NCBI GenBank assembly: GCA_964510435.1
Contig: CAZEBU010000001.1
Location: forward strand, 234,503 to 298,502
Reading direction: 5' to 3'
DNA length: 64,000 nt
From: an uncultured Candidatus Saccharibacteria bacterium
GTDB lineage: Bacteria; Patescibacteriota; WWE3; UBA101185; UBA10185
Shown piece after piece: positions 5,341 through 23,727 of the stretch; position 1 is the first letter of the stretch, and every line of letters starts with the position of its first letter. The position numbers and the translations under genes are program-made. The notes below the pieces were generated by a model. That model made no database searches and was not told where the DNA came from. It was given only the letters and a program-made list of their open reading frames with translations.

Positions 5341-5341
5341 C

Positions 5342-5581
5342 TTAGAATATGGTTATTATTGTAAACAAAAACAAGAACAAAGTCGCGAAAAAGTGCCCGT
5401 AAGAAAGACGAACTAATAGAGGAGCCACATCAGTTTGGAAACTTTTGTTAAGCAGCCTAACCTGCCTCACCATTAAAAAGGCAAAGATCAGATAAAAGAA
5501 TAAGACGAAAGCGATAAACAGCTGTACGATCAATCCTAGAGCAATGGCGCTGTTTAGTGTGTTAATAAAATCAATTTCCAT
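5342..5581 (-). CDS. Small hydrophobic membrane protein
   Basis: 79 aa with two predicted TM helices. Immediately downstream of and overlapping the 5571..6158 ORF. Confidence 0.35.
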   Translation of the reverse strand: MEIDFINTLNSAIALGLIVQLFIAFVLFFYLIFAFLMVRQVRLLNKSFQTDVAPLLVRLSYGHFFATLFLFLFTIITIF

Positions 5582-6158
5582 ATAATCCTTTCACTTCCGA
5601 AACCAGATCAGACAAGATATCCTGCAGCTTTCCCGGATCGGAAACACTATAAAATTCGATCTCTCTTCTTTCTGCTGCTGTTTGTATGGAAACGTTGCCA
5701 AAGTTGAAAAGAGTTTCCAGGGCACCGCTCACAGTATAAGTTATATCCTCAATATTTCTTAGGGGTGCTTCGGAAATGTTCCTATGCAGCAGGTGGTCAA
5801 AGTCCATGTCAACCACCCGTTTGTTAGTAACAATGTAAACATTGAAGAACCAGTTTAGAAATCTTTCGAACATATAACCGAAAGTAAAAATATACCAAAA
5901 GGCATTGACAATAAAGACCAGCACCAGCGAGAGTAAGTTAGGATAAGAATTGTTAAAGGAGGCTATGAACGCGTTGAAAAATAATGGTGCCAACAGCAAA
6001 CCGATGGAGGAAACAATCCAGCCAACATTTGTGATCAAGGCTTTTCTAAAGACATACAAAATTTCCTCGTCCCCATCCTCGCCCTCAAAGTATGTTTTGT
6101 CTGGTTTCTCAAGTACGGAGTTAGTTAGTATGTCTAACATGCTGATATTATATCTCAC
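5571..6158 (-). CDS. Membrane protein with two TM helices followed by a bacterial PH-like (bPH_2/DUF304-like) domain
   Basis: Two N-terminal TM helices followed by a ~100-aa soluble domain. The architecture is typical of YdbS/YdbT-like proteins. Confidence 0.4.
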   Translation of the reverse strand: MRYNISMLDILTNSVLEKPDKTYFEGEDGDEEILYVFRKALITNVGWIVSSIGLLLAPLFFNAFIASFNNSYPNLLSLVLVFIVNAFWYIFTFGYMFERFLNWFFNVYIVTNKRVVDMDFDHLLHRNISEAPLRNIEDITYTVSGALETLFNFGNVSIQTAAERREIEFYSVSDPGKLQDILSDLVSEVKGLYGN

Positions 6159-6215: not shown

Positions 6216-8042
6216 CTATTCCTTTTCGAAATCGAAGAGGCGGCTTCTGATGGCTACATATGAGGGTGCTCTAAGATTGAAGACCGTTTTAAAGGTTTGT
6301 CCGTCTATTTTAACTGTACCGTTATCGGTCTCTAATTCTACCTGTGAGGTATAACCGCCGTTACTGACATCTACACTGATGCTTTTGACCTTTTTGTAGC
6401 TCTTACCGTATTTATTGGCTTTGTCACGCATTTTGTCTAGTGAGTAAGGGTCTCCGCCCCAGCAGCTGGTAGTCACCGGCGTGATACGATCCTTTTCGCT
6501 GCCGGAGCCTTTTGTCCAGACTACCCAGGCATTTACGATATCCGCCATTTCTTCTTCGGTGAGCCAAGGATGGGATCTACCGCAGTTGCTATTGTCATTG
6601 TAGCTTTTGGTATACCAGGCTTTTCTAAACCAAGGGCTGCCGCCTTCTTTTTCATAAGCATCCTCAGGCCAGCACGAAGAGCCACCGCATTTTGTGTCCC
6701 AACCAACGTTATTAATATAACCTCCGGTAGTGGAGGAATACCATCCATAACCGGAAGCATCGGTGCTGCCGTCGATGATCTTGTTTTTTGTATCTTTGAC
6801 TGCGTCCTTCCATCTACCCGGGGGATCATCGCTTTTACTCTTTAGGAATACCTGACAGTTTTGTGTTGTACAAATACAGAGACCTTTTTTGGCAAACCTG
6901 TAGGCATAAGATCTGCCAGCCACCGCCTGTGCTTTCAAGGCGTCTGAATCCCAGCTGCTAGGCATCTCGGCCAAACCATAGAGGTATTTCTGGTAGTCCA
7001 TCTCGCCGTAGCCTTCCACGCAGATCTTGCTAGGAAAATCATCCTTTTCTTTTACATCTTCCTCATAATAAAACTCAATAATGTCTTTATAACCTTTACC
7101 CTTTTCCGCCCTGCCTCTAGCTCCATACTGACTCATTCCTTTATAGTGCGTGTACGCTCCGTAACTAAAGGCGGCAAAAGCAGGGTCAAAAGGAGGATCC
7201 GGGGTCTTAGCTTCGGAGGGTTCATATTCTCCCACACTACCGCTTTCCGTACCGTATTTTTGGTTTAAAATAGCTTGTTGTTTAGAGGAGAGCTCGGCGA
7301 TTTCCTGCTCCAGGTCAAAGAGTTCCTCTTCGTAATCTTCCTCTTCCTCTTCCAAGTTACTGAACTCATTTTGTGCCGAAGCTTTTTTACTATCTACATC
7401 AGCTTTTAGAGATAACAAACTGTTTTGTGTACCTTCCAGCTCGGATATGATAGTTTCCGCTTCCAGCCTGTCTGTTTCAAAGGTGTTGATCTCTGAATTC
7501 AACAAGTAGATCCATTGTAAAGCGTCGTCAGTGAGGGATTTATTAAATATGTAAGAGAAAGATGAATACTGGAATCCGGTGAGATTAGTACCAAAGGGAT
7601 TGAAGGCAAAAAATATTTCCAGGTCGCTCTTAAATCTTTTTTTGGAATAATTTCTGATAACTTTGTTTCTAAAATCAATCTTTTCTGCCAGCTTACCGCG
7701 GCGATCACTGAGGTTTTCGTTGATGATGTTTAGCTCTTCGCTGATAAAGTTAATTTCGCTTTGCAGCTCGTCAATTTGTGCTTGTGTCACATTTAGTTCC
7801 GAAAGGTACTGGTTTATGGTGGCTTCAATGTTGTCCATTTTGCCTCTAATATCGCCTAGCTTATTTGAGGTGGACTCGTATTTTTCTTGTTTGTCTTCGA
7901 TCTTATTGGCGTAGCAGTCTGCTCTGTCATCTAGATCTTGGATCTCCGAGCATCCCCCAACAACCGGTTTGGGTACAAGAGCCAGCAGGAAAGCCAGAGA
8001 TACTATGAGGAGAGATGTTTTAAACAGGTTCCTTGCGGGCAT
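6216..8042 (-). CDS. Secreted coiled-coil protein with C-terminal SpoIID/LytB-like domain (peptidoglycan remodelling)
   Basis: N-terminal signal peptide and a long heptad-rich coiled-coil region. C-terminal AQAVAGRSYAYRFAKKGLCICTTQNCQVF matches the SpoIID family motif (AQAVAARTYA...CDTTxCQVY). Confidence 0.6.
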   Translation of the reverse strand: MPARNLFKTSLLIVSLAFLLALVPKPVVGGCSEIQDLDDRADCYANKIEDKQEKYESTSNKLGDIRGKMDNIEATINQYLSELNVTQAQIDELQSEINFISEELNIINENLSDRRGKLAEKIDFRNKVIRNYSKKRFKSDLEIFFAFNPFGTNLTGFQYSSFSYIFNKSLTDDALQWIYLLNSEINTFETDRLEAETIISELEGTQNSLLSLKADVDSKKASAQNEFSNLEEEEEDYEEELFDLEQEIAELSSKQQAILNQKYGTESGSVGEYEPSEAKTPDPPFDPAFAAFSYGAYTHYKGMSQYGARGRAEKGKGYKDIIEFYYEEDVKEKDDFPSKICVEGYGEMDYQKYLYGLAEMPSSWDSDALKAQAVAGRSYAYRFAKKGLCICTTQNCQVFLKSKSDDPPGRWKDAVKDTKNKIIDGSTDASGYGWYSSTTGGYINNVGWDTKCGGSSCWPEDAYEKEGGSPWFRKAWYTKSYNDNSNCGRSHPWLTEEEMADIVNAWVVWTKGSGSEKDRITPVTTSCWGGDPYSLDKMRDKANKYGKSYKKVKSISVDVSNGGYTSQVELETDNGTVKIDGQTFKTVFNLRAPSYVAIRSRLFDFEKE

Positions 8043-8155: not shown

Positions 8156-8518
8156 ATGGTTAAAATCTTGCAAACCCTAGGATACTTTGTCTTTTCGCTG
8201 TTTGCATCCGCAGGGGTTGTTTACGCTGATGCGGAATCGGTACAGGAATTTATTGACAGCGTCGCTTTGGATGAGGCTGAGATAGCTGTAGGTATATATA
8301 ACTTCTTATTTCCTATTGGTTTGGCCGTAGGTTTTTTTGCCATAATCATGGCAGGCTACTCATACCTAACTAGCCAAGGACAACCGGATAAGGTAAAAGA
8401 AGCTAGCGAAAAATTAACCAGCGCTATACTTGGTATTATTTTTATAGCTCTATCTCTGGTCATCTTGCGGATCATTGTAGTTTCGTTATTGGGAGGCTCA
8501 TTACCCTTAGCTACGTAG
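8156..8518 (+). CDS. Small secreted two-helix hairpin protein, VirB2/TrbC-pilin-like (paralog 1 of 4)
   Basis: Signal peptide (..AGVVYA|DAES). Two hydrophobic helices separated by a short polar loop (AGYSYLTSQGQPDK...). Conserved motifs are shared with the next three ORFs. Confidence 0.5.
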   Translation: MVKILQTLGYFVFSLFASAGVVYADAESVQEFIDSVALDEAEIAVGIYNFLFPIGLAVGFFAIIMAGYSYLTSQGQPDKVKEASEKLTSAILGIIFIALSLVILRIIVVSLLGGSLPLAT

Positions 8519-8642
8519 TCATTACCAACCCATAACTTGAGATCCTACCGTTGTGTTGTCACTGGTGATTCTAAAGGTTATAATTAATTCATTACTTGGT
8601 CCGATTTACTTTTATTTTAAAGGAGGTGTAAGTTAACGAACT

Positions 8643-8996
8643 ATGTTATTACAAAAAGTGTATGCAGCAGGAACAGCTGTGAGTACTACCATTACCGACC
8701 CATTAACAAACTACACCAGCTTAGGTCAAGTCTTTAACTTTTTGCTCAATCTGTTTATTGGTATCGGTTGGGCCTTGGTTTTTGTCATGTTAGCTTTGGG
8801 TTTTGTACAGTACGTAATGTCACGAGGAGAGAAAACCGCTGTCGAGTCTGCCCAGAAATGGTTGACTTATGCCGTTATCGGTGGCGTTGGGTTGTTCTTT
8901 GTCTCTTTTGTGAGGAGGATAGTACCACAATTGTTAGGAGGTACTGCCGGTCCAGGAACTGGCCTTACAACAGGTGGAGACCTAACACCGTTCTAA
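8643..8996 (+). CDS. Small two-helix hairpin protein, VirB2/TrbC-pilin-like (paralog 2 of 4)
   Basis: RBS AAAGGAGG upstream. Core hairpin LGFVQYVMSRGEKTAVESAQKWLTYAVIGGVGLFFVSFVRRIVPQLLGG aligns with the other paralogs. Gly-rich C-terminal tail. Confidence 0.5.
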   Translation: MLLQKVYAAGTAVSTTITDPLTNYTSLGQVFNFLLNLFIGIGWALVFVMLALGFVQYVMSRGEKTAVESAQKWLTYAVIGGVGLFFVSFVRRIVPQLLGGTAGPGTGLTTGGDLTPF

Positions 8997-9049
8997 CGAG
9001 TATTGTTATTATTGTTACTGCAGTAATTACGAGATCTCAAAAAGGAAAA

Positions 9050-9077
9050 GCTCCAATGTTAACATTGGGGCTTTTTT
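9050..9077 (+). terminator. Rho-independent terminator after pilin-like paralog 2
   Basis: 9-bp stem GCTCCAATG/CATTGGGGC (one G-U pair) with a TTAA loop, followed by TTTTTTG. Confidence 0.55.
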
Positions 9078-9091
9078 GTTAAAATTATTTT

Positions 9092-9430
9092 ATGTTTGAT
9101 ACTCTACAAAGTATTTTTGGTTCGGTAGGCGCAGGTAGCCCAGGTAACAGCAAATATATTAGTTTTGCAGCTATGGCGGGTGCCGTCTTGAACTTTATGA
9201 TGGCCGTTGCCTTTGCGATCAGTATTTTAGCTGTGGCATACTCCGCTATCATGTACATTGTGAGCGGTGGAAATCCTGATAATACCAAGAAAGCTTGGAA
9301 TGCGTTTATATATGGAGTAGTTGGCGCTGCAGTTTCAGTAGGATTGTTTGCCTTGACCCGCATTGTTTTAAGTGGGTTTGGGGTTGAAGGTGTGCGAACT
9401 GATATTAATCAAATTATCCCAGGCTTTTAG
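9092..9430 (+). CDS. Small two-helix hairpin protein, VirB2/TrbC-pilin-like (paralog 3 of 4)
   Basis: Core VAYSAIMYIVSGGNPDNTKKAWNAFIYGVVGAAVSVGLFALTRIVLSGFG aligns with paralogs 1, 2 and 4. Confidence 0.5.
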   Translation: MFDTLQSIFGSVGAGSPGNSKYISFAAMAGAVLNFMMAVAFAISILAVAYSAIMYIVSGGNPDNTKKAWNAFIYGVVGAAVSVGLFALTRIVLSGFGVEGVRTDINQIIPGF

Positions 9431-9436
9431 AACAGG

Positions 9437-9907
9437 ATGAACACATTAAAGAAAAGTCTAATAATAGTATTTTTAATAACCGCTTCTTTGTTTGTGCTTA
9501 GTGATACAAATAAAGTGTACGCGCAATTTGGCGACTGCGATTTAGCTGGGGATACACAATTAGGTGTAACTGTTCCTAAACCCTCACAATTATTGTGCCC
9601 CTTCTACAGAATTATAAATTTCTTTTTCATTATTGTGGGCATTGTTTTTGCAGTTATGCTAGGTGTGGGAGCGATCAAGTTAGCCACCTCTTTAGGTGAT
9701 CCAAAGGCATTTCAGGGGGCCAACAGGACCTGGTTATACGCTGTTATTGGCGCGTTTGTGGCTGTGGGAGCGTATGCTGTTTTGAGGATTGTAAATAACG
9801 CGTTTGGTTTAGGTTTGTCTTTGGGAACAGGCCCCAGCAGCATTTATGACAGCATACAGACACAATGGGAAAATTTAATACGTAACACCTTCTTAATTTT
9901 TGAGTAA
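9437..9907 (+). CDS. Small secreted two-helix hairpin protein, VirB2/TrbC-pilin-like (paralog 4 of 4), with extra N- and C-terminal extensions
   Basis: Signal peptide (..TNKVYA|QFG). Core VGAIKLATSLGDPKAFQGANRTWLYAVIGAFVAVGAYAVLRIVNNAFG aligns with paralogs 1–3. Confidence 0.5.
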   Translation: MNTLKKSLIIVFLITASLFVLSDTNKVYAQFGDCDLAGDTQLGVTVPKPSQLLCPFYRIINFFFIIVGIVFAVMLGVGAIKLATSLGDPKAFQGANRTWLYAVIGAFVAVGAYAVLRIVNNAFGLGLSLGTGPSSIYDSIQTQWENLIRNTFLIFE

Positions 9908-9913
9908 ACCATC

Positions 9914-10552
9914 TTAATATGCGTAGTGGGGGGGTATAAAATACTCATCCTCTAAAATATTCCCCCAAAGTTGCATAAATTCATCCGCACTCATGGGTGT
10001 AAAATATGACTCTTGGTAAACAACCTGTGTGGTATCGAAGACGTTAAACCAAACCCCCTCATCCAGGTAAATATGGGCTTTTTCGTAAAAACCGTTTTTA
10101 TCGTATTTAATTATGTCAGGCTCGTCCAACTCCAAACGCTCTTTATAGGAGGAGAAAGGCAAAGCTTCATCATAGGATATAGGAATTCTCACAAACGCAA
10201 CTTTACCGTCTTTATCGACACCAATCTGGTGTTCCCTGACACCTGTCTTCGCGTCTCTGTGTACATAGAGAACCAACCCTTTGAAAGATCTTGAGGTAAG
10301 GAGTTTGCCGAATTTATCTTTGATATTCTCGTAGCTTGTTTTTCCTGGAGTAATACCATTCCAGGTATTTACTCTGTTTTCGGGTTTTACGTTATAGACA
10401 TCTGGAGAACCCAATTCCGGTTTTTCTGATTTAGGAATGCGTATACGTCCAAGGAATAAAATTATAATTCCTGCAACTAACCCAAAAACAAATATGAGAA
10501 AAAGTTTGTTTTCGAAAATAGTTTTTATAATAACCTTTAATTTATTTAGCAT
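9914..10552 (-). CDS. Bitopic membrane protein (N-terminal TM anchor + ~180-aa extracytoplasmic domain); speculative VirB8-like position
   Basis: A single N-terminal TM helix, LFLIFVFGLVAGIIILFLG. Sits 6 nt downstream of the 1075-aa gene on the same strand, so the two are probably co-transcribed. Confidence 0.45.
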   Translation of the reverse strand: MLNKLKVIIKTIFENKLFLIFVFGLVAGIIILFLGRIRIPKSEKPELGSPDVYNVKPENRVNTWNGITPGKTSYENIKDKFGKLLTSRSFKGLVLYVHRDAKTGVREHQIGVDKDGKVAFVRIPISYDEALPFSSYKERLELDEPDIIKYDKNGFYEKAHIYLDEGVWFNVFDTTQVVYQESYFTPMSADEFMQLWGNILEDEYFIPPHYAY

Positions 10553-10558
10553 ATTATT

Positions 10559-13500
10559 TTATGGTCCAAACAAAAAACTACTTGTAGCAAAATTATAATG
10601 TCCTTCGAAACAGGTAGGACAATATGTACCGTAGCTGTGCCAAAATTCGCTGGGAGAGACATTGGTGCATTGACCGCTTAGCACATGGTATTGTCCCACA
10701 GTCTCAGCAAAATCTTCGCTATTATTGTTACTTGTACTGCATTGGTTACCGGTGGGTCCTACGTATGTAGGTAATGTATAGCCGCTGTCATTTGACTGAG
10801 CTGTACCTAGGGCTCCCATGCCGTAGCGCATAGCATAGACATGTCCTGTTTCGTGGGCGAATAACCAATTGAAAAGAAGCTGGTTAGCGGAGTTGTATGT
10901 CCAACAACGGCCATCACCAAACTCTATTCTATTTAAACCTCTAGCCCAACCGCACCCAGCACCTCGATTCCAAGCAATTTCTATAGGACCGGCAGCGCAG
11001 AGTCTATCTACATAGCGACCACGAGTACCTGCTAGGCCGCCAGCGGCAGATTGTATGATGGAAAGTGCTTGTGGACCCTCTCCGGAATCCCACCCCTCAA
11101 GAAATTCAAAACAACCAACTGTACTTATTACTTCGCATTCTTCAGGAGGGCAGACTATGGGAGGGCCTGCAGCAGGACCACCTCCAAAATCCTTTCCAGC
11201 AGCCATTCTTGTGGGATCAACCGGAGTAATGGCTGTGAGAATGAAGATGAAAACTACCATCACTGGTATAACAACTACTAGACCAAAACAACCCATGACA
11301 TATCCCGCCAGTTTGAAAACTGCTTGAGCACTTTTTTCTACATATTTTTCTATAGCATCGAATTTAGCCTCTTTAATGGCTTTAAGCGTTGCAGCTGCAA
11401 AATCCATTGCTTTTTTGATCACATATTGCACTACCTTCTCGATGAGGGGGATCAACACGGTACCTATTCCTGATGTTCCGGCGGCGACAGCCGCACCGAC
11501 AACTTTGGCTAAAACTTTTGATATTGCCTTAGTTGCCATTTTCGACAACCATTTTGAAGCCACATTTCTTGCGTAAGCCACGGGCGCCAGGAATTTAAAA
11601 TATTTAAAGATCTTGCTTTGTATAATGTTGGCTCTCTGAGAAAGTTTATCTAAGATTCCGGCTTTACTTTGTAGGATACTGATAAAGTCTGAGTTTATCT
11701 CAATTTTATCCAAGCCTTTGAACAAGGCTTTGAGTTTCTCAATATTTTCCGGACTGTTTATTAAATACCCATTTGCATCGAATTTCAAACCCAGTTGCTT
11801 GTTGTGCTTCATAAGCCATTTTCTGAGGCTCTTTGCTCTTTGCTTCACGTCCTCTAATTCCTTAAAACCGTCATAATAAGATACTTTGTAAGCGACGCCG
11901 GGTCCGGTTTTGCCGTTAAGTAATTGTATAAAGCTCTTACCAGTCAAATGCAGTGCGTCTGATTTATCCAATGTGGTTCTGTCATTAAGACCAGTTCCAA
12001 GCTGAATATTAAAATTACCTGTAAATTTAAATTTACCCACGCCTTCTATATTGTGGGTTTGCCTATTAGCAAAAAGCCTAGTGCCCATTATTCCGTTGAA
12101 GAATTTTGATGATTTTACAGCGTCGTCACCCGGCACGCCGTCTTCTACGGAGTATCTCGAGTCGTATAATAGTCCAAAATAATGTCTTCTTTTTAGTTTT
12201 TCTTTTAAAAAACGCGCAGGTGTAAAACCATTTAATCGTTCCCTGAAAAGGACCCAAAATTGATCAGCTGCTATGTGCAATAGGCCGTCATTTTCAAGTC
12301 TATCTATGAGATCGTAAAAATCCTCCCTTTTATAGGTTCTTAGAGCCTCCTCCATAACATTGGCTAAGTTCTTAGTACCAACTATTTTGTCGTTACTGAA
12401 TATTACTTTGGTCAATGGGCTATTTAAAAGATGGGTTTCGACAAACTTTCTGTTCATTCGATCGAGGCTTCCCTTGACTTGGCCTTCCCTAGCGTATTTC
12501 TTTTGTAATAAACCAATTTTTCCACTGAGATTTCTAGCTTGGGTCTCACCGGTAATTTTTTCGTCTTTTAGCTTATCTAGATCTTTGAGGAGATTTCTTA
12601 ACGGTTTTGTATCTTTAACAAACTCATCAAGAGTATTACCACCTAATTCTATAAACCAATTATCCATTTCCTCTAAAGCCACATTTATCTTTGTGATATT
12701 CTCAACAACCCTTCCCAAGCGCTTATTTGCATCATCTATTGTGGCCGCACCATAAGTGTAAGCACTCAACTCTTTTGTCAAACCTGCTAATCCATAACCA
12801 ATGCCCTCACCATAAAGTGTTTCACCTGCCTTCTTTTGCGCATCCGTCAGTACACGGTCACTGGCGAATTTATAGGTGTTTATATCGCTACTCGAGATGC
12901 CCTGCAAAGCATTAGCCATTCTAATTGCCCTGGCTCGGTGTAGATAGGATTTGACAATTTCTACCTCTTTAGGATCACTTATATCCCCGCTATCAATCAG
13001 CTGAGTTAGTTCTGCCGAACTAGCTAGCGCCGCGGCGTTAATGAGCTTTCTGTAAGCCTTGTTTCTTGTACCCGAGGCTCGGACGGCTTGCATGTAGCTT
13101 AGGAAGGCACCGCCCGATTTTGCAAAAAGATCGGTTTCTGTTTCCGTAAATTCCTTAGTTTCCTTACCACCTACCTGTTCCTGGTAAAGAAGCCCAACTG
13201 ACACTTTAGCTTTAGGAATATCTAAACCCTTGAGTTGGAATGGCCTAAATTTAGTAGTCGCGCTTTCATCAAGGTGCTCGCCATATACCTTGCTTACGAT
13301 ACCTGGTATTGGTTTAATTTCACCTCCGCTCAGGAGAGGTTTCCACATAGCCGATTGCTCCATATAGGAATCAAAGTCTTTCCAGTTAGCAAAATCCTTT
13401 ACAAATCTATCTACGGTGTCTTTGGCCATTTCACCTGGGTTTCTCAGCCACTTGACAGGATTTATGTCTAATTCAAGCTGTACACCGGCAACATCTTCTT

Positions 13501-13786
13501 CATCACCAAGTTCTAGCGCACGCATAGGGTCGTAAGACACGCCTTTTGGTTTTGTTTGGGCAATTAAAGTTCTTTCCACATCGTCAATAAAGAACTTTTT
13601 AGCTTGATTACCAATGGTTAATTTATCCAGCTCTTTTCTAACCGCAAACAAGTACTTTTCGATCAAAGCATCCGTATTAAATTCGACCATATCAGGGGGT
13701 CTACTATAAGGAGGTCTTTTTCTAGGAATAGGCTTGCCAGGATAGTATCCGCCAAGAAGTTCGTAAAAAGGGTTTGAGTCAGGCAT
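10559..13786 (-). CDS. Large membrane protein: ~730-aa N-terminal domain without signal peptide, two central hydrophobic helices, C-terminal Cys/Gly-rich domain with HExxH zincin-like motif
   Basis: AHETGHVYAM motif in the C-terminal domain. Strongly hydrophobic segment GLVVVIPVMVVFIFILTAITPV. No Walker A motif was found. Confidence 0.5.
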   Translation of the reverse strand: MPDSNPFYELLGGYYPGKPIPRKRPPYSRPPDMVEFNTDALIEKYLFAVRKELDKLTIGNQAKKFFIDDVERTLIAQTKPKGVSYDPMRALELGDEEDVAGVQLELDINPVKWLRNPGEMAKDTVDRFVKDFANWKDFDSYMEQSAMWKPLLSGGEIKPIPGIVSKVYGEHLDESATTKFRPFQLKGLDIPKAKVSVGLLYQEQVGGKETKEFTETETDLFAKSGGAFLSYMQAVRASGTRNKAYRKLINAAALASSAELTQLIDSGDISDPKEVEIVKSYLHRARAIRMANALQGISSSDINTYKFASDRVLTDAQKKAGETLYGEGIGYGLAGLTKELSAYTYGAATIDDANKRLGRVVENITKINVALEEMDNWFIELGGNTLDEFVKDTKPLRNLLKDLDKLKDEKITGETQARNLSGKIGLLQKKYAREGQVKGSLDRMNRKFVETHLLNSPLTKVIFSNDKIVGTKNLANVMEEALRTYKREDFYDLIDRLENDGLLHIAADQFWVLFRERLNGFTPARFLKEKLKRRHYFGLLYDSRYSVEDGVPGDDAVKSSKFFNGIMGTRLFANRQTHNIEGVGKFKFTGNFNIQLGTGLNDRTTLDKSDALHLTGKSFIQLLNGKTGPGVAYKVSYYDGFKELEDVKQRAKSLRKWLMKHNKQLGLKFDANGYLINSPENIEKLKALFKGLDKIEINSDFISILQSKAGILDKLSQRANIIQSKIFKYFKFLAPVAYARNVASKWLSKMATKAISKVLAKVVGAAVAAGTSGIGTVLIPLIEKVVQYVIKKAMDFAAATLKAIKEAKFDAIEKYVEKSAQAVFKLAGYVMGCFGLVVVIPVMVVFIFILTAITPVDPTRMAAGKDFGGGPAAGPPIVCPPEECEVISTVGCFEFLEGWDSGEGPQALSIIQSAAGGLAGTRGRYVDRLCAAGPIEIAWNRGAGCGWARGLNRIEFGDGRCWTYNSANQLLFNWLFAHETGHVYAMRYGMGALGTAQSNDSGYTLPTYVGPTGNQCSTSNNNSEDFAETVGQYHVLSGQCTNVSPSEFWHSYGTYCPTCFEGHYNFATSSFLFGP

Positions 13787-13813
13787 ACGTTTATTTTATA
13801 ATAGATTTATAGT

Positions 13814-15247
13814 ATGAGAAAGGAAACCCTGCTTGATAGAAAAATAGTTCTTAAATTAGCTACATTCTTATTTGTCGGCTTTTTGTTCCTTGGATTATCA
13901 CCAAAAGCGCATGCAGGGGTGTGCGATGAACAACCCCCAAAATTTAGATTTGATATCATGATTGCCTGCAAACTTAAGGAGATTAATCCCCTGGTCTCTA
14001 TTCAGAGAACAATCAACGACGCGGCAACTACCATACTCACTAATGTTTTAGCCTCCATAGTTTTTAATAGTAATCCTGATGATCTGGGGACGTGCGGCGT
14101 TGCTATGTTGGCGGATCGAATAGACACTCTTCCCGGAGTGAATATGACGGACATTACTGATCAAAATGGAGTTTTGTTTAGTGCTGCGGAAGTGCAGGAT
14201 GCTCGTGATGCAGCCCCGGCCATCGGCTGTGATTTTAACGACACCCTTTTCGGGTCAAGGGCTAACGGCAGTTTGATGGGAGTAACTAAATTTGCTTTTA
14301 ACACGGTAACAACAGAGCAGCCTCCGATTAATTTGGCTTATTATTTCAAGCACAATTTGCAGAAGGTACCCATTATCAGTGATACAGCTTATGCACAAAC
14401 AGTGAGCTATAACGCCTGGGGATTGGAATTTGCTATCCAGATTTGGGAAAAATCACGCAACATTGCCTACGCCATGATGTCGGTTATCATGCTTGTCATA
14501 GGCATCCTTATTATTACCAGGAAAAAAATAAACCCCCAGACTGTAGTTTCTGTACAAACGGCTCTACCCAGGATAGTGATCAGCCTTATTCTTATTACTT
14601 TTAGCTATCCTATCGGGGCCATCTTAATATCCATAGGTTACGCCTTGGTAGTCGTTGTTATCAGGTTGTTTTTTGGAACTATTATAGATGATGTATCCCA
14701 GTTGGCGGATATGGATGTGCTGGTAATGATGGTTACTATTATGGCAGCTACTATTGGACCTCAAGGAGTAATAGGAGTAGTGACGGCAATGCTAATGGCT
14801 GTTTTGACCATCATAGCTTTGCTAGTGGCTATTATTAAGATTATAATTATTAATCTAAAGGTTCTTATTGCTATAATTTTTGCACCTATTCAGTTTGCTA
14901 TCGCAGCCATCCCGGGGCAGGAGGACCTGGTGCAGGATTGGTTTAAGAAGATGCTCGCCAAAGTGTTAGCTATTCCTGCCATATTCTTTATGATTGCCCT
15001 AGCTTGGTATATGCTCATTGTGCCCTTTACCAATCCAGATTTCTTTACCAGCATACTCGTACAATCCACTGACCCGATAAGTATTGGATATACCCTGATC
15101 AGAGGAGCAAGGGCGGTTGGTTCCAGAATGATCACTATTATGTTGCTTCCCCTTATGACCATTATGACTATGTTTTTTGCTTTGAAAGCGGATAAAGTAG
15201 TGGAAGAGTTTATTATGGGCGGTAGAGGTAAACCTAAAAGAAGATAG
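13814..15247 (+). CDS. Polytopic membrane protein with signal peptide and N-terminal extracytoplasmic domain, VirB6/TrbL-like architecture
   Basis: Signal peptide followed by a ~200-aa soluble region. At least five long hydrophobic helices in the C-terminal half. Divergent from the 1075-aa gene with only a 27-nt gap. Confidence 0.45.
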   Translation: MRKETLLDRKIVLKLATFLFVGFLFLGLSPKAHAGVCDEQPPKFRFDIMIACKLKEINPLVSIQRTINDAATTILTNVLASIVFNSNPDDLGTCGVAMLADRIDTLPGVNMTDITDQNGVLFSAAEVQDARDAAPAIGCDFNDTLFGSRANGSLMGVTKFAFNTVTTEQPPINLAYYFKHNLQKVPIISDTAYAQTVSYNAWGLEFAIQIWEKSRNIAYAMMSVIMLVIGILIITRKKINPQTVVSVQTALPRIVISLILITFSYPIGAILISIGYALVVVVIRLFFGTIIDDVSQLADMDVLVMMVTIMAATIGPQGVIGVVTAMLMAVLTIIALLVAIIKIIIINLKVLIAIIFAPIQFAIAAIPGQEDLVQDWFKKMLAKVLAIPAIFFMIALAWYMLIVPFTNPDFFTSILVQSTDPISIGYTLIRGARAVGSRMITIMLLPLMTIMTMFFALKADKVVEEFIMGGRGKPKRR

Positions 15248-15259
15248 TTAGATAATTAA

Positions 15260-18200
15260 ATGATATGCGCCGTTATGAAATCCAGCAGATTTACCAAGAT
15301 ATTTACGATCCTCCTAGTTTTATTAGGAGTTTCCCTATTTAACAACGTATTTGCACAAGAAGAATGTGACGAAGACGGTTTTATTGTCAATAGCTATTGT
15401 CCTTGTCCCCCTGATCCTGGTATAGCTTCAGTTTGCGGATTTGTGAGTGACGCGAATATTACCCAGGATCTTCCCGATACGGGTATAGAAAGAGCAATCT
15501 GGTCTACCAGAAAACCTGTACCCGGTGTTACCGTGACCATTTATGAAAATAACCCTGATATACCAACAGGTAAGCCGTATGGGAAGCTAGACAGAAAATT
15601 TGGTGCCTGCTACACCACAGAAGAAGAAGGAAAATATCACTGTTTAATGCGGAGACTTAATCCCGGCAACATGGCCTATGTCATTTTTAGCTGTGACGGA
15701 AAAATAGCGGATATGAAGATTATACCCACTGTGAAAAGTTACATAGGACTAGATTCAGATATAGATTGTAGCGGCGAATATAGTTACAATGCCCTAGATG
15801 ATGAGCTAGACTTTGCTGAGAGAAGTAATTTTTTGGGCTGTTTATCAACATCTGATGAAGAGGAAAATGTTAACGCCGGTTTTGAGGAACCGGAGTACAT
15901 CTACAAAAGTGCTGATATTGGTGAGAAGGGTGGAGATATTAGATTCAACCCTTTCACTGGAGTTTTACCCATTGTTGGTGTGCACAACGGTGCCTTTTGG
16001 GAAAAGGATTGTTTGTTCGAATTCACAGGACCGTTAGATTTAAACAGAGAATACGCTCTATTCGGAGGTTTTTTTGGTTTAGCAAACTATGGAAGTGTGT
16101 CAGAAAAGTGTAATTTGGATCCGGACAGAGATGGTGATGGAGCTATAGACGGCGATGATGGAAATCCCCTCAATGATCCTGATGAACTCACAGTGCCGTT
16201 CAGATATGATATTCCAACATTGCAGTTAGAGCACGAGCAGCAGAGGATTTGGGAGACCAGAACTTCCATGCAACGGGAAATACAGGATCCCAGAGCATTT
16301 CAACAGTACAACCATCTCATGTTTGGTGAATGTGTAGGTAGGGCGTTTCTCAGGTATTTTGGCGATGATGATGAAGACCTGCCTATTTCCTGCAGTGAGC
16401 TGGCGGAGTGTAACGAAGCCTTAGGAGATCCTTTTAGGAATACACACACAGCATTGAGTTTAGGATCACGTCTTGAGTTACAAGTTACTTGGGAGGACAT
16501 CTTAGATGCAAATGAAAGGGATCCGGAGGACATAGTTTGCGAAGATGAAGAATTGGGAGAGATTATGATTTCTGAGGTGCAACCACCATTCCCTGATAAC
16601 CCGTGCGAACCGGGAAGCCCGGGGTGCCCATATAAGTTATCAAGAGATTACTATATGCCGCAGTTTTTTGTTGAGGTTGGTGGTGTAAAAAAACCTAAAA
16701 CAGCAGAAACAGCGAATGACGCATATGGAAGTATCCCTAGGAGTTTAGTATGGGAACCTATAAGTACAGAAGCGGAAACTCCCCATGAATCAGGGCACTA
16801 TGTGAATTATGAGGACAAATCTTCGCAGAGGACAAACTCAGGCAGGACAGCTATCAGATTAGCCTCGAAAAGTAATGCTGATCTCGGGGACGTTATGACT
16901 AACAGGTTCGTGAGTTACATAGACGCTGTAGATGAAACTTATGATTATAATTCGGAATCAACAATTTGGGATGCAGGTGGAGATGTTAAAAGCCTATGTA
17001 CCATTTCTAGTGTTAACGATTTGCTTATAATTCCCGACCTGGCTACAGAAACCACAACTTTGGTGAGCAACGAGTTTGTTGGAGATGAAACGGATCATAA
17101 AGAGGACGAAACGGCGGCCTCGTCAACCTATGGTACAAATTGGGGTATGGCAAGAGACGAAGCTATGTCAAACGATTATTTCTGGCGTGATGTGCTTGAT
17201 ACCTTACAAAGGTACTCAAGTGGTGGCGGTGTGCAGCTAGACTTGATGACCGCTTGGGCAATCGTAAGAAACATTGCCTCACGTGGAGCCGGTAATGTTT
17301 ATAAATCGTTCGCAGAAAGAATAGATAACTGGGCACAAGTAGGCTACCCTTCTTATATGAATACGGAATACTGCATTGCCGAAGATACCTTTGAAGCAGC
17401 CTTCCCAGCTTATGGTACAGGAGGTTATCCTGGCGGACACGCTTGCTATCCTTGGATAGATGTGCCCAGTGGGGAAAATTGTGACGCTTGGCCGGGACCT
17501 CCGGGTGAGTGGCCTCCTACTCCAGAGGTGAGTGCGCTAGGTTATAACGCTGGTTCATGGCCAGGTATAGAGGGAGAGCTAAGAACATGCAGAGCTTTAA
17601 ATTGTGAGATAAGAACAAAAACTCGAACTTGCGATGAGGAAATATGCAGGTGGGTTTGGAATTCACGCGCCGGCGTATTTGTTTGGGTGTGCAGTGGTTG
17701 CGGGGATAATAATGGAGATGGGAACGTGGACTCAAACATTGATGATTCTACGAGAGGCTGTAACGACGGTGAGCTTAGGGCCTGTTTAGTTGAGCAAAGA
17801 GATAACTGGGATGAACAGCCTCCAGATCCCCCTCCACTGGATCCCCCTGATTATGATGATGAAAATAGTAGTATACGCGCTTGTGATTTAGAAAAAGCCG
17901 GACCAATGCAAGAGCCGGGTGATATTTGGAAAGACCACTCTGCTAGGATAGTTCAGCAGCCTTTTTTCGGGCAATCTCAAGAAAATGTTGATACGGTGTC
18001 CTTGACCGCTAACTACACGGCACTTTCCCTAACCAGTAAGGTTGAAGAAAGAAGAGAAAGCCATAAGGTTAGTTTTGTAGATTATGCATCCACAAATGAT
18101 ATCAGCGGAGGGGGACCTGCACAGGCCATAGATCCTGATAGGCTTAGGCACAGGAACACCGCAGGCACAAATTCTCAAGGATTTGGTACCGGGGCGGCAG

Positions 18201-18892
18201 TAGATCTACTAAAAACCATTAGCCACCCCGAAAGGTTTGGTTCTCTGGTTGAGCCGTTGCCGGACTGGATTCCAAATTGTAATTTTTATGATCCTAATTC
18301 ATGGTGTTATGCTATTCAACCTCCTGGTCCCATCGATTTAGATAGTTTGGATGGAGGTGCATGTAATCCAAATACTACTCGGGGAGCATGTCCTTTGAAC
18401 GGTTATGTACCCGCTATTGCAGAGAGAATACTAGGTGCCGCCGGAGCTAATTCGGGGGTTGATGGCGCAGTTTTGCTGGCAGCCATATATGGAGAAGGTG
18501 GGTGGATTGGTCCTGGGGCAAGGCTTGATTGGATAGATGCCAACGTCAGAGCCTGGAGCGAACCCTGGTATGCGAGAATACCTGGATGTAACGACATGGT
18601 GCCCACAGCCCAGGGACCTTTTGGTATGATAACCCGTTGGTTTGAAGGTGCGGTAGCTAATGGAGGATACCACCCATCGAGAGTAAGTCCTACCAACGGA
18701 CAGGTTATAGTCAGTAAATGTAACTTTATAGACGCAGCTTATGCTGCGGCACAGATGCTTGGTGGAATAGGATGTAATGGTTTTAGTGCAGCTGATGTAA
18801 GACAGAGATTAGCGGTTTACAGAGGCGGTTCTCAAGCAAATCCGGCAGACGTACCCCAGTTTTTAGTAGACACCGCTATGAACTGCCGCTAA
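15260..18892 (+). CDS. Giant secreted Cys-rich protein with Asp-rich calcium-binding-like repeats (DxDxDGxxD) and a possible C-terminal lysozyme/lytic-transglycosylase-like domain
   Basis: Signal peptide (..NNVFA|QEE). Very many Cys residues. DPDRDGDGAIDGDDGNPLNDPDE resembles thrombospondin-type-3 Ca-binding repeats. The C-terminal region (AIYGEGGW...GPFGMITRWF) is weakly reminiscent of SLT-type motifs. Confidence 0.5.
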   Translation: MICAVMKSSRFTKIFTILLVLLGVSLFNNVFAQEECDEDGFIVNSYCPCPPDPGIASVCGFVSDANITQDLPDTGIERAIWSTRKPVPGVTVTIYENNPDIPTGKPYGKLDRKFGACYTTEEEGKYHCLMRRLNPGNMAYVIFSCDGKIADMKIIPTVKSYIGLDSDIDCSGEYSYNALDDELDFAERSNFLGCLSTSDEEENVNAGFEEPEYIYKSADIGEKGGDIRFNPFTGVLPIVGVHNGAFWEKDCLFEFTGPLDLNREYALFGGFFGLANYGSVSEKCNLDPDRDGDGAIDGDDGNPLNDPDELTVPFRYDIPTLQLEHEQQRIWETRTSMQREIQDPRAFQQYNHLMFGECVGRAFLRYFGDDDEDLPISCSELAECNEALGDPFRNTHTALSLGSRLELQVTWEDILDANERDPEDIVCEDEELGEIMISEVQPPFPDNPCEPGSPGCPYKLSRDYYMPQFFVEVGGVKKPKTAETANDAYGSIPRSLVWEPISTEAETPHESGHYVNYEDKSSQRTNSGRTAIRLASKSNADLGDVMTNRFVSYIDAVDETYDYNSESTIWDAGGDVKSLCTISSVNDLLIIPDLATETTTLVSNEFVGDETDHKEDETAASSTYGTNWGMARDEAMSNDYFWRDVLDTLQRYSSGGGVQLDLMTAWAIVRNIASRGAGNVYKSFAERIDNWAQVGYPSYMNTEYCIAEDTFEAAFPAYGTGGYPGGHACYPWIDVPSGENCDAWPGPPGEWPPTPEVSALGYNAGSWPGIEGELRTCRALNCEIRTKTRTCDEEICRWVWNSRAGVFVWVCSGCGDNNGDGNVDSNIDDSTRGCNDGELRACLVEQRDNWDEQPPDPPPLDPPDYDDENSSIRACDLEKAGPMQEPGDIWKDHSARIVQQPFFGQSQENVDTVSLTANYTALSLTSKVEERRESHKVSFVDYASTNDISGGGPAQAIDPDRLRHRNTAGTNSQGFGTGAAVDLLKTISHPERFGSLVEPLPDWIPNCNFYDPNSWCYAIQPPGPIDLDSLDGGACNPNTTRGACPLNGYVPAIAERILGAAGANSGVDGAVLLAAIYGEGGWIGPGARLDWIDANVRAWSEPWYARIPGCNDMVPTAQGPFGMITRWFEGAVANGGYHPSRVSPTNGQVIVSKCNFIDAAYAAAQMLGGIGCNGFSAADVRQRLAVYRGGSQANPADVPQFLVDTAMNCR

Positions 18893-18957: not shown

Positions 18958-19434
18958 GTGAGATATAATAACCCCATGCTGATACAGAAAAACCGCAAGG
19001 CTCTCTTTAACCACGAGATTCTCGAGAAATTTATGGCAGGAATTGAATTAAAGGGTTTTGAGGTCAAGGCAATAAAAGAAAATAAAGCCAGTTTTGAAGG
19101 TTCGTTTGTCAACATAGTGAAGGGCGAGGCCTTTGTACAAGGTATGCATATTGGCAAGTATTCGAAACAGAGCCAGGATTACTACGAACAAGAAGCACGC
19201 CGTCCTAGACGTTTGCTCTTAAATAAGCATGAGCTGAAAAAACTAAAAAAAGAAATTTCCGAAAAAGGTAAAACAGCGGTTCCATTGGCACTGTTATTAA
19301 AACGAGGCATGATCAAATTAGAGTTTGCGGTGGTTAAAGGTAGAAAAAAGCACCAGAAAAAACAATTACTGAAAAAGAAGCAGATAGAAATGGATCTAAA
19401 GAAAGAGATCAAACAGCAGTTTGAGTTGCCGTAA
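18958..19434 (+). CDS. smpB: SsrA-binding protein SmpB (true start possibly the second ATG at 18976)
   Basis: Sequence matches the SmpB family (NRKA...GIELKGFEVKAIK...LLLNKHELKKL). A basic C-terminal tail is present. Confidence 0.85.
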   Translation: MRYNNPMLIQKNRKALFNHEILEKFMAGIELKGFEVKAIKENKASFEGSFVNIVKGEAFVQGMHIGKYSKQSQDYYEQEARRPRRLLLNKHELKKLKKEISEKGKTAVPLALLLKRGMIKLEFAVVKGRKKHQKKQLLKKKQIEMDLKKEIKQQFELP

Positions 19435-19509: not shown

Positions 19510-19902
19510 GGGGATGCGTAGGCATTGATTGGAAGAAGTAATTACGAGAGCAAGCCGAAGTGATAGATTTTCGTAAAAAACTATCAAAACATAAGTGCTG
19601 ATGAATACGCATATCAGCCAGCATACGCTTACGCTTAAGTGTATGTGTCAGAACCCTTTGGGTATATCCCAAATCGTTTTGAGGTCCTGTGCTCACTAGC
19701 CTGAGGGGAGTGCAAGGGCGTTATAAAATCAGGCACCGCAGCTTAAGCCTGACCAGTTTAGGTTGTTTGCGAAAGGAAGGTCTAGGGAAAGGTTAAGGGT
19801 TTGCGGTTGCCCGACTTTTACCGAATAAATTTCCGCTAAGCTTGTATTCTTTTGTATTTTATAGCTTTCAAGACGGGGGTTCGAATCCCCCCATCTCCAC
19901 CA
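19510..19902 (+). ncRNA. ssrA: tmRNA (ssrA), one-piece form
   Basis: 5' GGGGAUG pairs with the 3' acceptor strand CAUCUCC, with one G-U pair. The 3' end has the tRNA-like T-arm GGGGGTTCGAATCCCCC followed by A and CCA. It lies immediately downstream of smpB. An in-frame tag-like ORF ends at TAA 19636..19638 (…ADEYAYQPAYAYA*). The 5' boundary is approximate. Confidence 0.65.
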
Positions 19903-21315: not shown

Positions 21316-21993
21316 ATGGAAAACCTAGTAAACACATTTTTTCCGGCAAAATGCTTTAACTGCGGGGAAAATTACGGAGATATTTGTCGTGCATGCCTAA
21401 ACGAGTGCTTAATTGCCAGAAATTTCTATTGTATAGTCTGTGACAAACCTGTGGTAAAGGGTAAAACTCATGTAAAGTGTGAAGGCAACTTTACCCCAAG
21501 AAGTATCTTTAGTGCCTTTGAGTACTCAGGCATAGTGAGAAAATGCATAAAAACAGCAAAATATCGATCCAAAACCTTTGCGCCACTAAAGAAATTAGCT
21601 CTAGAGGCCGCTAAAATGGCTTCTACCTGCAATTTACAGTACCAAGGATACACAGTAACCTCCATTCCTCTCAGCCGAAAAAGAAACAAAGAGAGAGGGT
21701 TTAACCAGGCAGGATTAATTTTATCAGCCATAGCTAGGCAGTATGATCTATCCCATAGGGAGTCTATTTTAGCTAGAAAAAAGCAGACCAAAGCTCAGTA
21801 CGGCCAGGCAAGAAAAGAGAGGTTTGAGAATTTGCGAGGAGCGTTTGTTTGTAATAGAAATATTAAAGGTCAGAAAATACTCTTAGTAGATGATATTTGC
21901 ACAACGGGAGCCACTTTGCTGGAGGCGTCTAAGGTTTTACGCAGTGCAGAAGCCCAGGAAGTGCAGTGTTTTACCTTGGCTAAAAAGTTTTAG
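21316..21993 (+). CDS. comFC: ComF/ComFC-like phosphoribosyltransferase-domain protein with N-terminal zinc finger
   Basis: N-terminal CFNCG...CRAC...CIVC cysteine cluster. C-terminal PRTase motif ILLVDDICTTGATL. Confidence 0.7.
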   Translation: MENLVNTFFPAKCFNCGENYGDICRACLNECLIARNFYCIVCDKPVVKGKTHVKCEGNFTPRSIFSAFEYSGIVRKCIKTAKYRSKTFAPLKKLALEAAKMASTCNLQYQGYTVTSIPLSRKRNKERGFNQAGLILSAIARQYDLSHRESILARKKQTKAQYGQARKERFENLRGAFVCNRNIKGQKILLVDDICTTGATLLEASKVLRSAEAQEVQCFTLAKKF

Positions 21994-22063: not shown

Positions 22064-22150
22064 GGAGGGTTGGCAGAGTGGTAATGCAGCGGCTTGCTAA
22101 GCCGTGACCGTTAATACGGTCCGTGGGTTCGAATCCCGCACCCTCCGCCA
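22064..22150 (+). tRNA. tRNA-Ser (anticodon GCT), class II with long variable arm
   Basis: Acceptor GGAGGGT/ACCCTCC, anticodon loop CTTGCTAAG, T-arm GTGGGTTCGAATCCCGC, encoded CCA. Confidence 0.85.
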
Positions 22151-22201
22151 TGATCACAGCCAAGTGTGTTTTATTTACGAATAAGCTATACTTAACCTAA
22201 T

Positions 22202-22795
22202 ATGAAGGTAACCGACCTAACCGATTTAATAGGTGTGACAAACACAAAAAAGGATCAGCCGGTAGCGCCGGAAGAAGCGGAGTTTAGACGGGAAAACCTT
22301 GGATCTAAATCGATCTACTTATCTTGGGAAGCCAAACCTAGCGCTCCAACTGCCTCTATTGATCCCAGATTTAAAAAGACCTTCTTAGTCATTGGTGCTG
22401 TCGTGGGCTTGGTTCTTATGGTTATGGGAGAAGTGTTTTTGCTCCTGGTGATTGCCAGCTTGGTTTTTATTACCTACGTATTATCAAATAACCCTTTGGA
22501 AAGTTTTAAGTACGAATTAAGCAGTCACGGACTGAGTGTGCATGGGAATCATTACTATTGGGACGAAATGGAAAGGTTTTTCTTTACTAAGCATTTTGGT
22601 AGCGAAAATCTAGCTGTTGATCTAAAAGAAGGATTACCTGCCAGGCTTATTATTGCTTTTAACCACAACGATAAGGAAAAGATCACCGAAAGCATGAATA
22701 AGCATCTTCCTTATTTGGAGGAGGAGCCCTTGAATTTTATGGATAAAGCGTATACAGGTATTTTAGGCAAGTTTGATTTCCAAAAGAAAAAATAG
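22202..22795 (+). CDS. Hypothetical protein with a central TM hairpin
   Basis: 197 aa. Hydrophobic segment FLVIGAVVGLVLMVMGEVFLLLVIASLVFITYVL. Confidence 0.45.
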   Translation: MKVTDLTDLIGVTNTKKDQPVAPEEAEFRRENLGSKSIYLSWEAKPSAPTASIDPRFKKTFLVIGAVVGLVLMVMGEVFLLLVIASLVFITYVLSNNPLESFKYELSSHGLSVHGNHYYWDEMERFFFTKHFGSENLAVDLKEGLPARLIIAFNHNDKEKITESMNKHLPYLEEEPLNFMDKAYTGILGKFDFQKKK

Positions 22796-22814
22796 TAGTC
22801 TCCCCATATATAAT

Positions 22815-22890
22815 GCACCCGTAGTTCAGTGGATAGAACGCAGCGTTGCGGACGCTGAGGTCGGGGGTTCAAATCCCTCCGGGTGCGCCA
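22815..22890 (+). tRNA. tRNA-Arg (anticodon read as GCG)
   Basis: Cloverleaf GCACCCG-TA-GTTCAGTGGATAGAAC-G-CAGCG-TTGCGGA-CGCTG-AGGTC-GGGGGTTCAAATCCCTC-CGGGTGC-G-CCA. A GCG anticodon is unusual for bacteria; ACG is more common. Confidence 0.75.
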
Positions 22891-22912
22891 AAGTTGTTAC
22901 ACAGGCTTATTT

Positions 22913-22989
22913 GGGCCGTTAGCTCAGTCGGCTAGAGCGTCGCATTCGCATTGCGGAGGTCGGGGGTTCGATTCCCCCACGGTCCACCA
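22913..22989 (+). tRNA. tRNA-Ala (anticodon CGC)
   Basis: Acceptor GGGCCGT with the G3:U70 identity pair. Anticodon loop TTCGCAT, T-arm GGGGGTTCGATTCCCCC, encoded CCA. Confidence 0.8.
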
Positions 22990-22997
22990 AGAATTTT

Positions 22998-23089
22998 GGA
23001 GGGGTGCGAGAGTGGTTTAATCGGCTGGTCTCGAAAACCAAGCGCTTGCGAGAGCAGGCACGAGGGTTCGAATCCCTCCCCCTCCGCCA
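22998..23089 (+). tRNA. tRNA-Ser (anticodon CGA), class II
   Basis: Acceptor GGAGGGG/CCCCTCC, anticodon loop CTCGAAA, long variable arm, T-arm GAGGGTTCGAATCCCTC, encoded CCA. Confidence 0.8.
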
Positions 23090-23221
23090 TGAAAAGTAGA
23101 TATTGTCTTGAGCTAACCACCTAGCTGTAAAAACCTTTACCTTCAGAGAACCCCATAGTATAATATTACACAACATTTCAAAATAACCGAGAAGAATAAA
23201 ACAAATCAAGAAGGAGGCGAC

Positions 23222-23680: not shown

Positions 23681-23686
23681 AACAAA

Positions 23687-23727
23687 CCCCTCATTGGTAG
23701 ATTCTATTTGCCATGAGGGGCTTTTTA
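23687..23727 (+). terminator. Rho-independent terminator
   Basis: Stem CCCCTCAT/ATGAGGGG with a 18-nt loop, followed by CTTTTTAT. Confidence 0.5.

Follow-up and report, generated by a model that had tools for sequence, protein, structure and literature searches.

A probable pilin and VirB6-like module of a chromosomal type IV secretion system in a WWE3-related bacterium

The 64-kb stretch of contig CAZEBU010000001.1 analysed here (the window) contains eight consecutive genes situated upstream of smpB and the tmRNA gene ssrA, which we read, with a probability of roughly 0.8, as the pilin and VirB6 module of a Patescibacteria-type chromosomal type IV secretion system (T4SS) of a WWE3-related lineage. 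An initial annotation of this DNA had proposed a T4SS-like apparatus, and this is borne out by matches of the four small proteins to the Pfam family PF18895 (T4SS_pilin) and by related loci that carry genes for PrgI/VirB3-like, TraC/TrsD-like, VirB4 and VirD4-like proteins. The accompanying suggestion of a novel or incomplete system is not supported; systems of this kind are already published (PMC12102498, PMC12857230), and there is no new kind of system at the locus. Three elements are added to the published picture: a structure-supported VirB6 candidate, a 1075-amino-acid (aa) partner protein with interchangeable hydrolase domains, and an arrangement in which the pilin module is split from the genes of the motor ATPase.

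All eight of the consecutive open reading frames (ORFs) that had been proposed are present, and the basis on which each is described is given in parentheses:

8156–8518, + strand: pilin paralog 1, 120 aa (PF18895)
8643–8996, + strand: pilin paralog 2, 117 aa (PF18895)
9092–9430, + strand: pilin paralog 3, 112 aa (PF18895)
9437–9907, + strand: pilin paralog 4, 156 aa (PF18895)
9914–10552, − strand: 212-aa bitopic membrane protein (hydropathy)
10559–13786, − strand: 1075-aa bitopic protein with an outer domain containing HETGH (family of orthologs)
13814–15247, + strand: 477-aa VirB6-like polytopic protein (predicted structure and synteny)
15260–18892, + strand: 1210-aa secreted Cys-rich giant protein with a GH23-like C-terminus (hydropathy and weak profile matches)

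The genes are very tightly packed across 9907–13814. The pilin 4 gene and the 212-aa gene are convergent with 6 nt separating their stops (9907–9914), and the 212-aa and 1075-aa genes nearly abut, as had been described, lying in the same frame and separated by the stop plus two codons. The 27-nt gap between the divergent starts of the 1075-aa and 477-aa genes (13787–13813) was also correctly placed. A scan for promoter-like hexamers shows no enrichment (26 sites compared to 31 expected); the best matches, which are only suggestive, precede pilin 1, pilin 2, the 477-aa gene, a SpoIID-like gene to the left of the array, and ssrA. Those of the 477-aa gene (13774–13802) extend into the opening codons of the 1075-aa gene.

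Pilin array and VirB6-like protein

Among Pfam families, PF18895 gives each of the four small proteins its best match (E-values from 3e-8 to 6e-5), in agreement with the earlier call of VirB2-like pilins. The gathering cut-off of the family is 26.6 bits, which is exceeded by pilin 1 (34.2 bits, E 2.7e-8); pilin 2 (26.2 bits, E 8.4e-6) and pilin 4 (26.5 bits, E 6.7e-6) are less than 0.5 bit short of it, and pilin 3 (23.4 bits, E 6.3e-5) is short by about 3 bits. Pilin orthologs in three related loci (L003, L004 and L005) are annotated with PF18895, and NCBIfam searches give weak matches to a pilin-like conjugal transfer family (NF045849 for pilin 1). A hydropathy scan reveals two hydrophobic helices in each of the four proteins, as anticipated; however, the signal peptide that had been ascribed to all four is represented by a hydrophobic signal-like N-terminus in pilins 1 and 4 only, and in pilins 2 and 3 a polar leader of ~25 aa precedes the two helices. 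Pilin 4 contains two Cys residues. The four small proteins are predicted to be VirB2-type pilins.

The four paralogs share 26–31% pairwise identity. Pilins 1 and 4 have positional orthologs in L003–L006, pilin 2 has orthologs in the same four loci that are 38–69% identical, and pilin 3 has positional orthologs in L006 (47% identical) and L003 (42% identical). Since every paralog is matched by a positional ortholog of its own in related genomes, the array is an old one and not the product of a recent amplification. Orthologous arrays are contiguous with VirB4 in seven loci (L004, L012, L013, L016, L019, L020 and L034).

The 477-aa protein consists of a signal/anchor helix, a helical outer domain of ~180 aa, and at least five membrane helices. 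Its hydrophobic segments are located at aa 215–460, with one more at the N-terminus, and an AlphaFold2 model contains long helices in the same region. Searches of Pfam and NCBIfam yield no match for the protein, and a search with VirB6/TrbL hidden Markov models (HMMs), which the initial annotation had offered as a check, identifies neither the 477-aa protein nor any of 60 homologs (0/60 at E<0.01). A distant homolog, P0045, has a precomputed tag given as PF19590. The AlphaFold2 model, which was built with 60 sequences, has a mean predicted local distance difference test score (pLDDT) of 88.8 and a predicted template modelling score (pTM) of 0.85, and its fold superposes on solved VirB6. The five best Foldseek matches are all TrwI/VirB6 chains (probability up to 1.00, E 0.09–0.29), and it is VirB6 and DotA specifically that the structure matches.

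Relatives of the 477-aa protein were sought in one genome per species, and 296 were identified, from WWE3, Gottesman-, Shapiro-, Woese- and Roizmanbacteria. Of the 62 loci with sufficient sequence upstream, 61 have two or more pilin genes in the preceding 6 kb; of the 49 with sufficient sequence downstream, 25 have a gene for a PrgI/VirB3-like, TraC/TrsD-like or VirB4 protein within 10 kb. The VirB6-like polytopic character proposed earlier thus holds by the Foldseek matches to TrwI/VirB6 and by linkage to the pilin array, and the protein is predicted to be VirB6-like by its modelled fold and its context, not by a sequence model.

Bitopic proteins and the Cys-rich giant

Members of the 1075-aa family have a conserved, mostly helical N-terminal region of ~750 aa that lacks a signal peptide, followed by one or two membrane helices and a variable, Cys-containing C-terminal domain. 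In the window copy the membrane anchor is at approximately aa 755–860 and is followed by the Cys-containing outer domain. The HExxH domain noted in the initial annotation is present, with HETGH at aa 978, outside the membrane anchor; the motif occurs in 14 of 25 family members. The family is represented in 29 loci (26 distinct) and its gene is always divergent from that of the VirB6-like protein. The 1075-aa protein itself has no Pfam or NCBIfam match, and two orthologs have recognisable domains at the same C-terminal position: CHAP in P0230 (31.3 bits, cut-off 26) and Peptidase_M23 in L012 (31.6 bits, cut-off 28.7). CHAP and M23 domains are peptidoglycan hydrolases. The outer domain is predicted to be swappable (HExxH here, CHAP or M23 in orthologs), and because CHAP and M23 occupy the same position in orthologs, the HExxH domain probably acts on the cell wall as a metallopeptidase, in a VirB1-like role. 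The 1075-aa partner suggests how the apparatus crosses peptidoglycan. A full-length AlphaFold2 model built with 13 sequences is mediocre (mean pLDDT 62, rising to ~80 for aa 890–1075), and gives a weak Foldseek match to an M4 zinc protease (probability 0.57). The other Foldseek matches of this model are mostly to membrane transporters and are considered spurious.

The 212-aa protein, the gene for which is directly downstream of the 1075-aa gene, has one N-terminal hydrophobic helix. Its family is present in 11 WWE3 loci, always at the same position, and in other WWE3 loci its place is taken by an apparently unrelated bitopic protein of 166–189 aa. The 212-aa protein has no match in Pfam, NCBIfam or PDB, and a profile of the 11 orthologs finds nothing relevant in PDB, neither for nor against a VirB8-like (NTF2-type) fold.

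The 1210-aa giant contains 39 Cys residues and one N-terminal hydrophobic signal-like segment. It has no Pfam or NCBIfam match, and single-sequence PDB searches with the two giants of the locus return nothing or noise. Full-length orthologs are found only in WWE3-type loci, on either strand, beside the VirB6-like gene. The Asp-rich Ca-binding-like repeats that had been described are reduced to one clear DxDxDGxxD-type stretch (~aa 288–310) and one weaker (~aa 810); both are conserved only in the closest relatives. A muramidase-like C-terminus, which had also been suggested, is plausible, yet the matches are weak and sub-threshold. This GH23-like domain spans approximately aa 1040–1180 and recurs in 86 cluster representatives of many lengths. 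Pfam searches with 52 carriers of the domain yield no match, and one ortholog of the giant matches SLT_2 at E 0.031. Comparison of a profile of the domain with PDB gives sub-threshold matches alone, of which five of six are GH23 enzymes (E 0.13–2.2), including MltC (E 0.13) and goose lysozyme (E 0.26). In the MltC alignment, the invariant Glu of the domain is aligned to the Glu of the MltC '..ESSF' motif, and this residue is kept in the subclade of the window ('GEGGW', aa ~1085–1090) and in a 584-aa protein of L083.

Alignment of the WWE3 giants with the large VirB6-adjacent proteins of Gottesman-, Shapiro- and Woesebacteria-type loci using hhalign gives probabilities below 1%, which suggests that these large neighbours are particular to their lineages. 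For the giant, binding to the host wall or attack on it is possible, and the protein is a fair candidate for a factor that acts in host contact or on the host wall.

Split layout, known systems and role

Pfam scans of the window (every ORF of 369 aa or longer and the majority of the smaller ones) confirm the earlier observation that VirB4 and VirD4 are absent from it. The layouts of related loci indicate where such genes can be located. In the WWE3 locus L004, a SpoIID gene, four pilin genes, an 818-aa ortholog of the 1075-aa protein and an ortholog of the 477-aa protein run straight into genes for PrgI-like, TraC-like and VirB4 proteins, followed by dnaN and dnaA. The layout of the window, in which the 477-aa gene is followed by the giant gene and smpB, is present in more than 12 WWE3-type loci, including the complete genome CP006914.1 (878,109 bp); CAIRNR010000007.1 (715,186 bp) also has it. 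The longest contigs of two VirB4 clusters, P0170 and P0216, are exactly 878,109 and 715,186 bp in length. In the two contigs examined for P0170, PrgI-like and TraC-like genes come before VirB4 and dnaN comes after it, and the surroundings contain no pilin module. The earlier guess that the ATPases lie elsewhere fits these two related WWE3 assemblies of the same layout, and two separate chromosomal modules appear to make up the system in this lineage. Such a layout matters for surveys that are confined to 20 genes around virB4.

Patescibacterial VirB4 is strikingly conserved: all 8000 of the 8000 scored candidates have E <1e-10, and the best 120 are 64–100% identical to a WWE3 VirB4 (L004, 13765–16038). 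Identity falls to 20–40% for the pilins, VirB6-like proteins and large partner proteins that belong to this system.

The Gottesmanbacteria locus L066 contains, in this order, a sigma factor gene, pilin genes, a homolog of the 477-aa gene, a gene for a 1287-aa protein, two NAD genes, and genes for VirD4-like, PrgI-like and TraC-like proteins. The sigma factor is of an extracytoplasmic function (ECF)-like type (302 aa; L066 6827–7735, − strand) and its gene is just upstream of the pilin array, such that it could serve to regulate the pilin genes specifically. Mevalonate-pathway genes lie beyond it, and further Gottesmanbacteria-type loci have similarly sized genes in the same order.

Several points weigh against assignment of the window genes to a T4SS. 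Three of the four pilins score slightly under the Pfam gathering threshold, and the VirB6 assignment comes from a predicted structure and synteny, with no HMM match and a weak Foldseek E-value (0.09). The enzymatic assignments of the HExxH domain and the GH23-like domain are both below significance, and the Glu of the GH23-like domain is replaced in all eight of eight RAAC2-type WWE3 orthologs (L017, L018, L022–L025, L027 and L028), in which the domain may be catalytically dead. No VirB4, VirB3, TrsD or VirD4 gene lies within the 64 kb, and the ATPase partner for the window's own genome is inferred. The sub-threshold pilin scores and the lack of an ATPase in the window, together with the lack of a significant family match for the 477-, 1075-, 1210- and 212-aa proteins, would also suit a locus with no secretion apparatus, its small genes encoding membrane peptides of other kinds (holins, immunity proteins or bacteriocin-related peptides) and its large genes surface or wall proteins that act independently. 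This is very improbable, however, given that PF18895 is the best family for four of four with orthologs that reach the threshold in other genomes, that many relatives have the array and the 477-aa gene in one run with genes for PrgI-like, TraC-like and VirB4 proteins, and that the structure matches VirB6 and DotA specifically.

Patescibacteria account for a considerable part of bacterial diversity, and their way of life is attachment to other microbes. A 2025 survey by Quinonero-Coronel et al. (PMC12102498) describes a Patescibacteria-specific VirB4 clade that is related to the T4SS class of single-membrane bacteria and has TrsD and PrgI/VirB3 partners. VirB2 arrays are reported to contain 2–11 divergent genes with a mean identity of 25% and to be especially common in Microgenomatia and Saccharimonadia, relaxases are mostly absent, virB4 is often near dnaA, and comF, recG and radA are beside T4SS genes in the class ABY1; VirB6 is termed 'scarce' in Microgenomatia, for which extreme divergence is proposed (PMC12102498). 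Compared with these systems, the module of the window is similar in being chromosomal, with no relaxase among the ORFs scanned, in having tandem divergent PF18895 pilins (26–31% identity, compared to the survey mean of 25%), in combining a VirB6-like polytopic protein with peptidase/lysozyme-type proteins, and in having relatives with PrgI/VirB3-like, TrsD/TraC-like and VirB4 genes beside dnaN and dnaA. It differs in that it is located by smpB–ssrA, apart from VirB3, TrsD and VirB4, and in that its VirB6-like family escapes VirB6/TrbL HMMs. The 477-aa family is a candidate for the VirB6 that the survey reports as scarce in Microgenomatia, and the 1075-aa partner and the 1210-aa giant are without mention in the sections of it that were consulted (PMC12102498).

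Other characterised systems are more distant. Identity to the TrwI (VirB6)/TrwL (VirB2) stalk of R388 (PDB 7o3v, 8rt9) is ~8–12%; compared with R388, the 477-aa protein has the extra helical outer domain of ~180 aa, there are four pilin paralogs here and one there, and no VirB5, VirB7, VirB9 or VirB10 is seen in the window, as expected for a one-membrane cell. The systems of the mating-pair formation type FATA (MPF-FATA: pCF10 Prg, pIP501 Tra and ICEBs1 Con) share the single-membrane architecture, the PrgI/VirB3-like and VirB4 genes found in the window's relatives, and, in the hydrolases PrgK, TraG and CwlT, a large membrane-anchored protein with outer CHAP/M23/lysozyme-type domains. In contrast to the locus described here, these Gram-positive systems are not known to have VirB2 pilins, and their hydrolases are without the conserved ~750-aa N-terminal region and contain SLT plus CHAP where the window copy has HExxH; furthermore, no relaxase or PrgB-type adhesin is seen in the window. 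DotA of the Legionella Dot/Icm system (PDB 9ngy) is 9% identical, but is an 857-aa protein of a type IVB system in a two-membrane bacterium, and no other Dot/Icm components are in the window.

In the mechanism that we propose, VirB4 and its PrgI/VirB3-like and TraC/TrsD-like partners would be encoded elsewhere, as they are beside dnaN in related WWE3 genomes. VirB4 would extract the pilins from the membrane and polymerise them on the VirB6-like platform; in the R388 model, VirB4 reportedly feeds pilins to the VirB6 platform. The cell's own or the host's peptidoglycan would be opened by the HExxH domain and the GH23-like domain, perhaps together with the SpoIID-like enzyme, which would let a filament or channel pass. 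According to a 2025 review, a Saccharibacteria T4SS with a six-pilin array is essential for growth on the host (PMC12857230), a system that the review credits to Wang et al. 2023. Saccharibacteria are the one tractable lineage, and by analogy with this requirement the apparatus of the window would serve contact or exchange with a host and not conjugation.

The same components could instead form a DNA-uptake (competence-type) T4SS, similar to Helicobacter ComB, with host or environmental DNA as a source of nucleotides. A ComFC-like gene lies near the module in 11 related loci (9 distinct), and the survey reports both comF, recG and radA beside T4SS genes in ABY1 and the lack of a relaxase in most Patescibacteria-clade T4SSs (PMC12102498). 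However, deletion of comEC in Saccharibacteria ended competence with viability unaffected, whereas the T4SS is essential (PMC12857230), so that ComEC-dependent DNA uptake is not what makes the T4SS essential there. ComFC-like proteins are encoded by a common housekeeping competence gene, so that the linkage may be incidental, and no component of the module is predicted to bind or process DNA. We consider DNA uptake unlikely, and favour a T4SS module used in contact with a host.

A fuller account of that module can be put together, which as a whole we hold only tentatively and rate somewhat below even. The 477-aa protein would be the missing, extremely divergent VirB6; the 1075-aa protein a previously undescribed core component, with a large cytoplasmic domain and a VirB1 role in one chain; and the giant a lineage-specific factor that attacks the host wall or binds the host, on or via the pilus. 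The ATPase genes would form one module at the origin and the pilus genes another beside smpB. If so, the WWE3/Microgenomatia-type T4SS would consist of components that escape HMM surveys.

Flanking genes and the island question

The genes flanking the module are as follows:

3463–6158, − strand: upstream trio encoding 625-aa NHL-repeat, 79-aa DUF5657-like and 195-aa bPH_2 proteins (Pfam)
5342–5581, − strand: the 79-aa DUF5657-like protein of the trio (Pfam)
5571–6158, − strand: the 195-aa membrane protein of the trio, with a bPH_2 domain (Pfam)
6216–8042, − strand: SpoIID/LytB-like gene (PF08486, E 2.6e-15; TIGR02669, E 1e-23)
18958–19434: smpB (PF01668, E 9e-42)
19510–19902: tmRNA gene (ssrA)

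The initial annotation regarded the tmRNA gene as an integration hotspot, and the module could on this basis be a mobile island or integrative conjugative element inserted at smpB–ssrA. The module does adjoin the tmRNA gene, T4SS genes are typical cargo of conjugative elements, and the GC content, which is ~0.40–0.42 over most of the block, like the rest of the window, reaches 0.455–0.475, although only across the 3′ half of the giant gene. However, the order of the upstream neighbours, SpoIID, pilins, 1075-aa gene, 477-aa gene, giant gene and smpB is kept in the closest WWE3-type loci, in which the 477-aa protein is ~39–55% identical, and synteny despite this level of identity points to vertical inheritance. 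Over the wider set of WWE3-type genomes in which the block is syntenic, identity of the 477-aa protein is ~30–55%. There is no integrase or relaxase match among the window ORFs scanned (small ORFs being partly covered), the block is upstream of smpB and not at the 3′ end of ssrA, and this 3′ end occurs once within the window, with no second copy that could represent a duplicated att site. The survey likewise finds such systems to be chromosomal and mostly without a relaxase (PMC12102498). Insertion as an island is thus highly improbable, and the idea that the eight genes travel together, which the initial annotation had put forward for checking, is not supported either, in that the giant and the 212-aa protein are present in subsets of the WWE3-type loci only. 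Housekeeping genes flank both sides of the module (a LeuRS-type synthetase, L25, smpB, tmRNA, dnaG and rpoD).

The SpoIID-like protein is secreted, has an N-terminal coiled coil, and is encoded divergently from the pilin array. A SpoIID-like gene is beside the array in 22 loci (19 distinct) and is absent from the annotated Gottesmanbacteria-type locus L066; the protein is a possible wall-remodelling partner, and its membership in the module is uncertain. The trio is upstream of SpoIID in L003, L004 and L005 also, and its orthologs recur in other WWE3-type loci. It may be part of the same functional unit, although this membership too is uncertain.

To the right of the module, a ComFC-like gene (21316–21993, + strand) encodes a Pribosyltran domain and a double zinc ribbon, and is positioned a few kb downstream of the module in the 11 related loci (9 distinct) in which it is found. 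A gene for a TraX-family protein (27855–28523, − strand; PF05857, E 2e-39) is situated 9 kb from the pilin array. TraX is the family of the F-pilin N-acetylase; among the 10-kb flanks of related loci it is present in L023 only, and a link to the pilins is speculative. The region from 22064 to 26633 contains a tRNA cluster (Ser, Arg, Ala, Ser) followed by ORFs of 152, 162, 219 and 508 aa, none of which has a Pfam match. The 508-aa ORF has homologs in L008, L013, L016 and L057, and the GC content is locally raised, to ~0.46–0.47.

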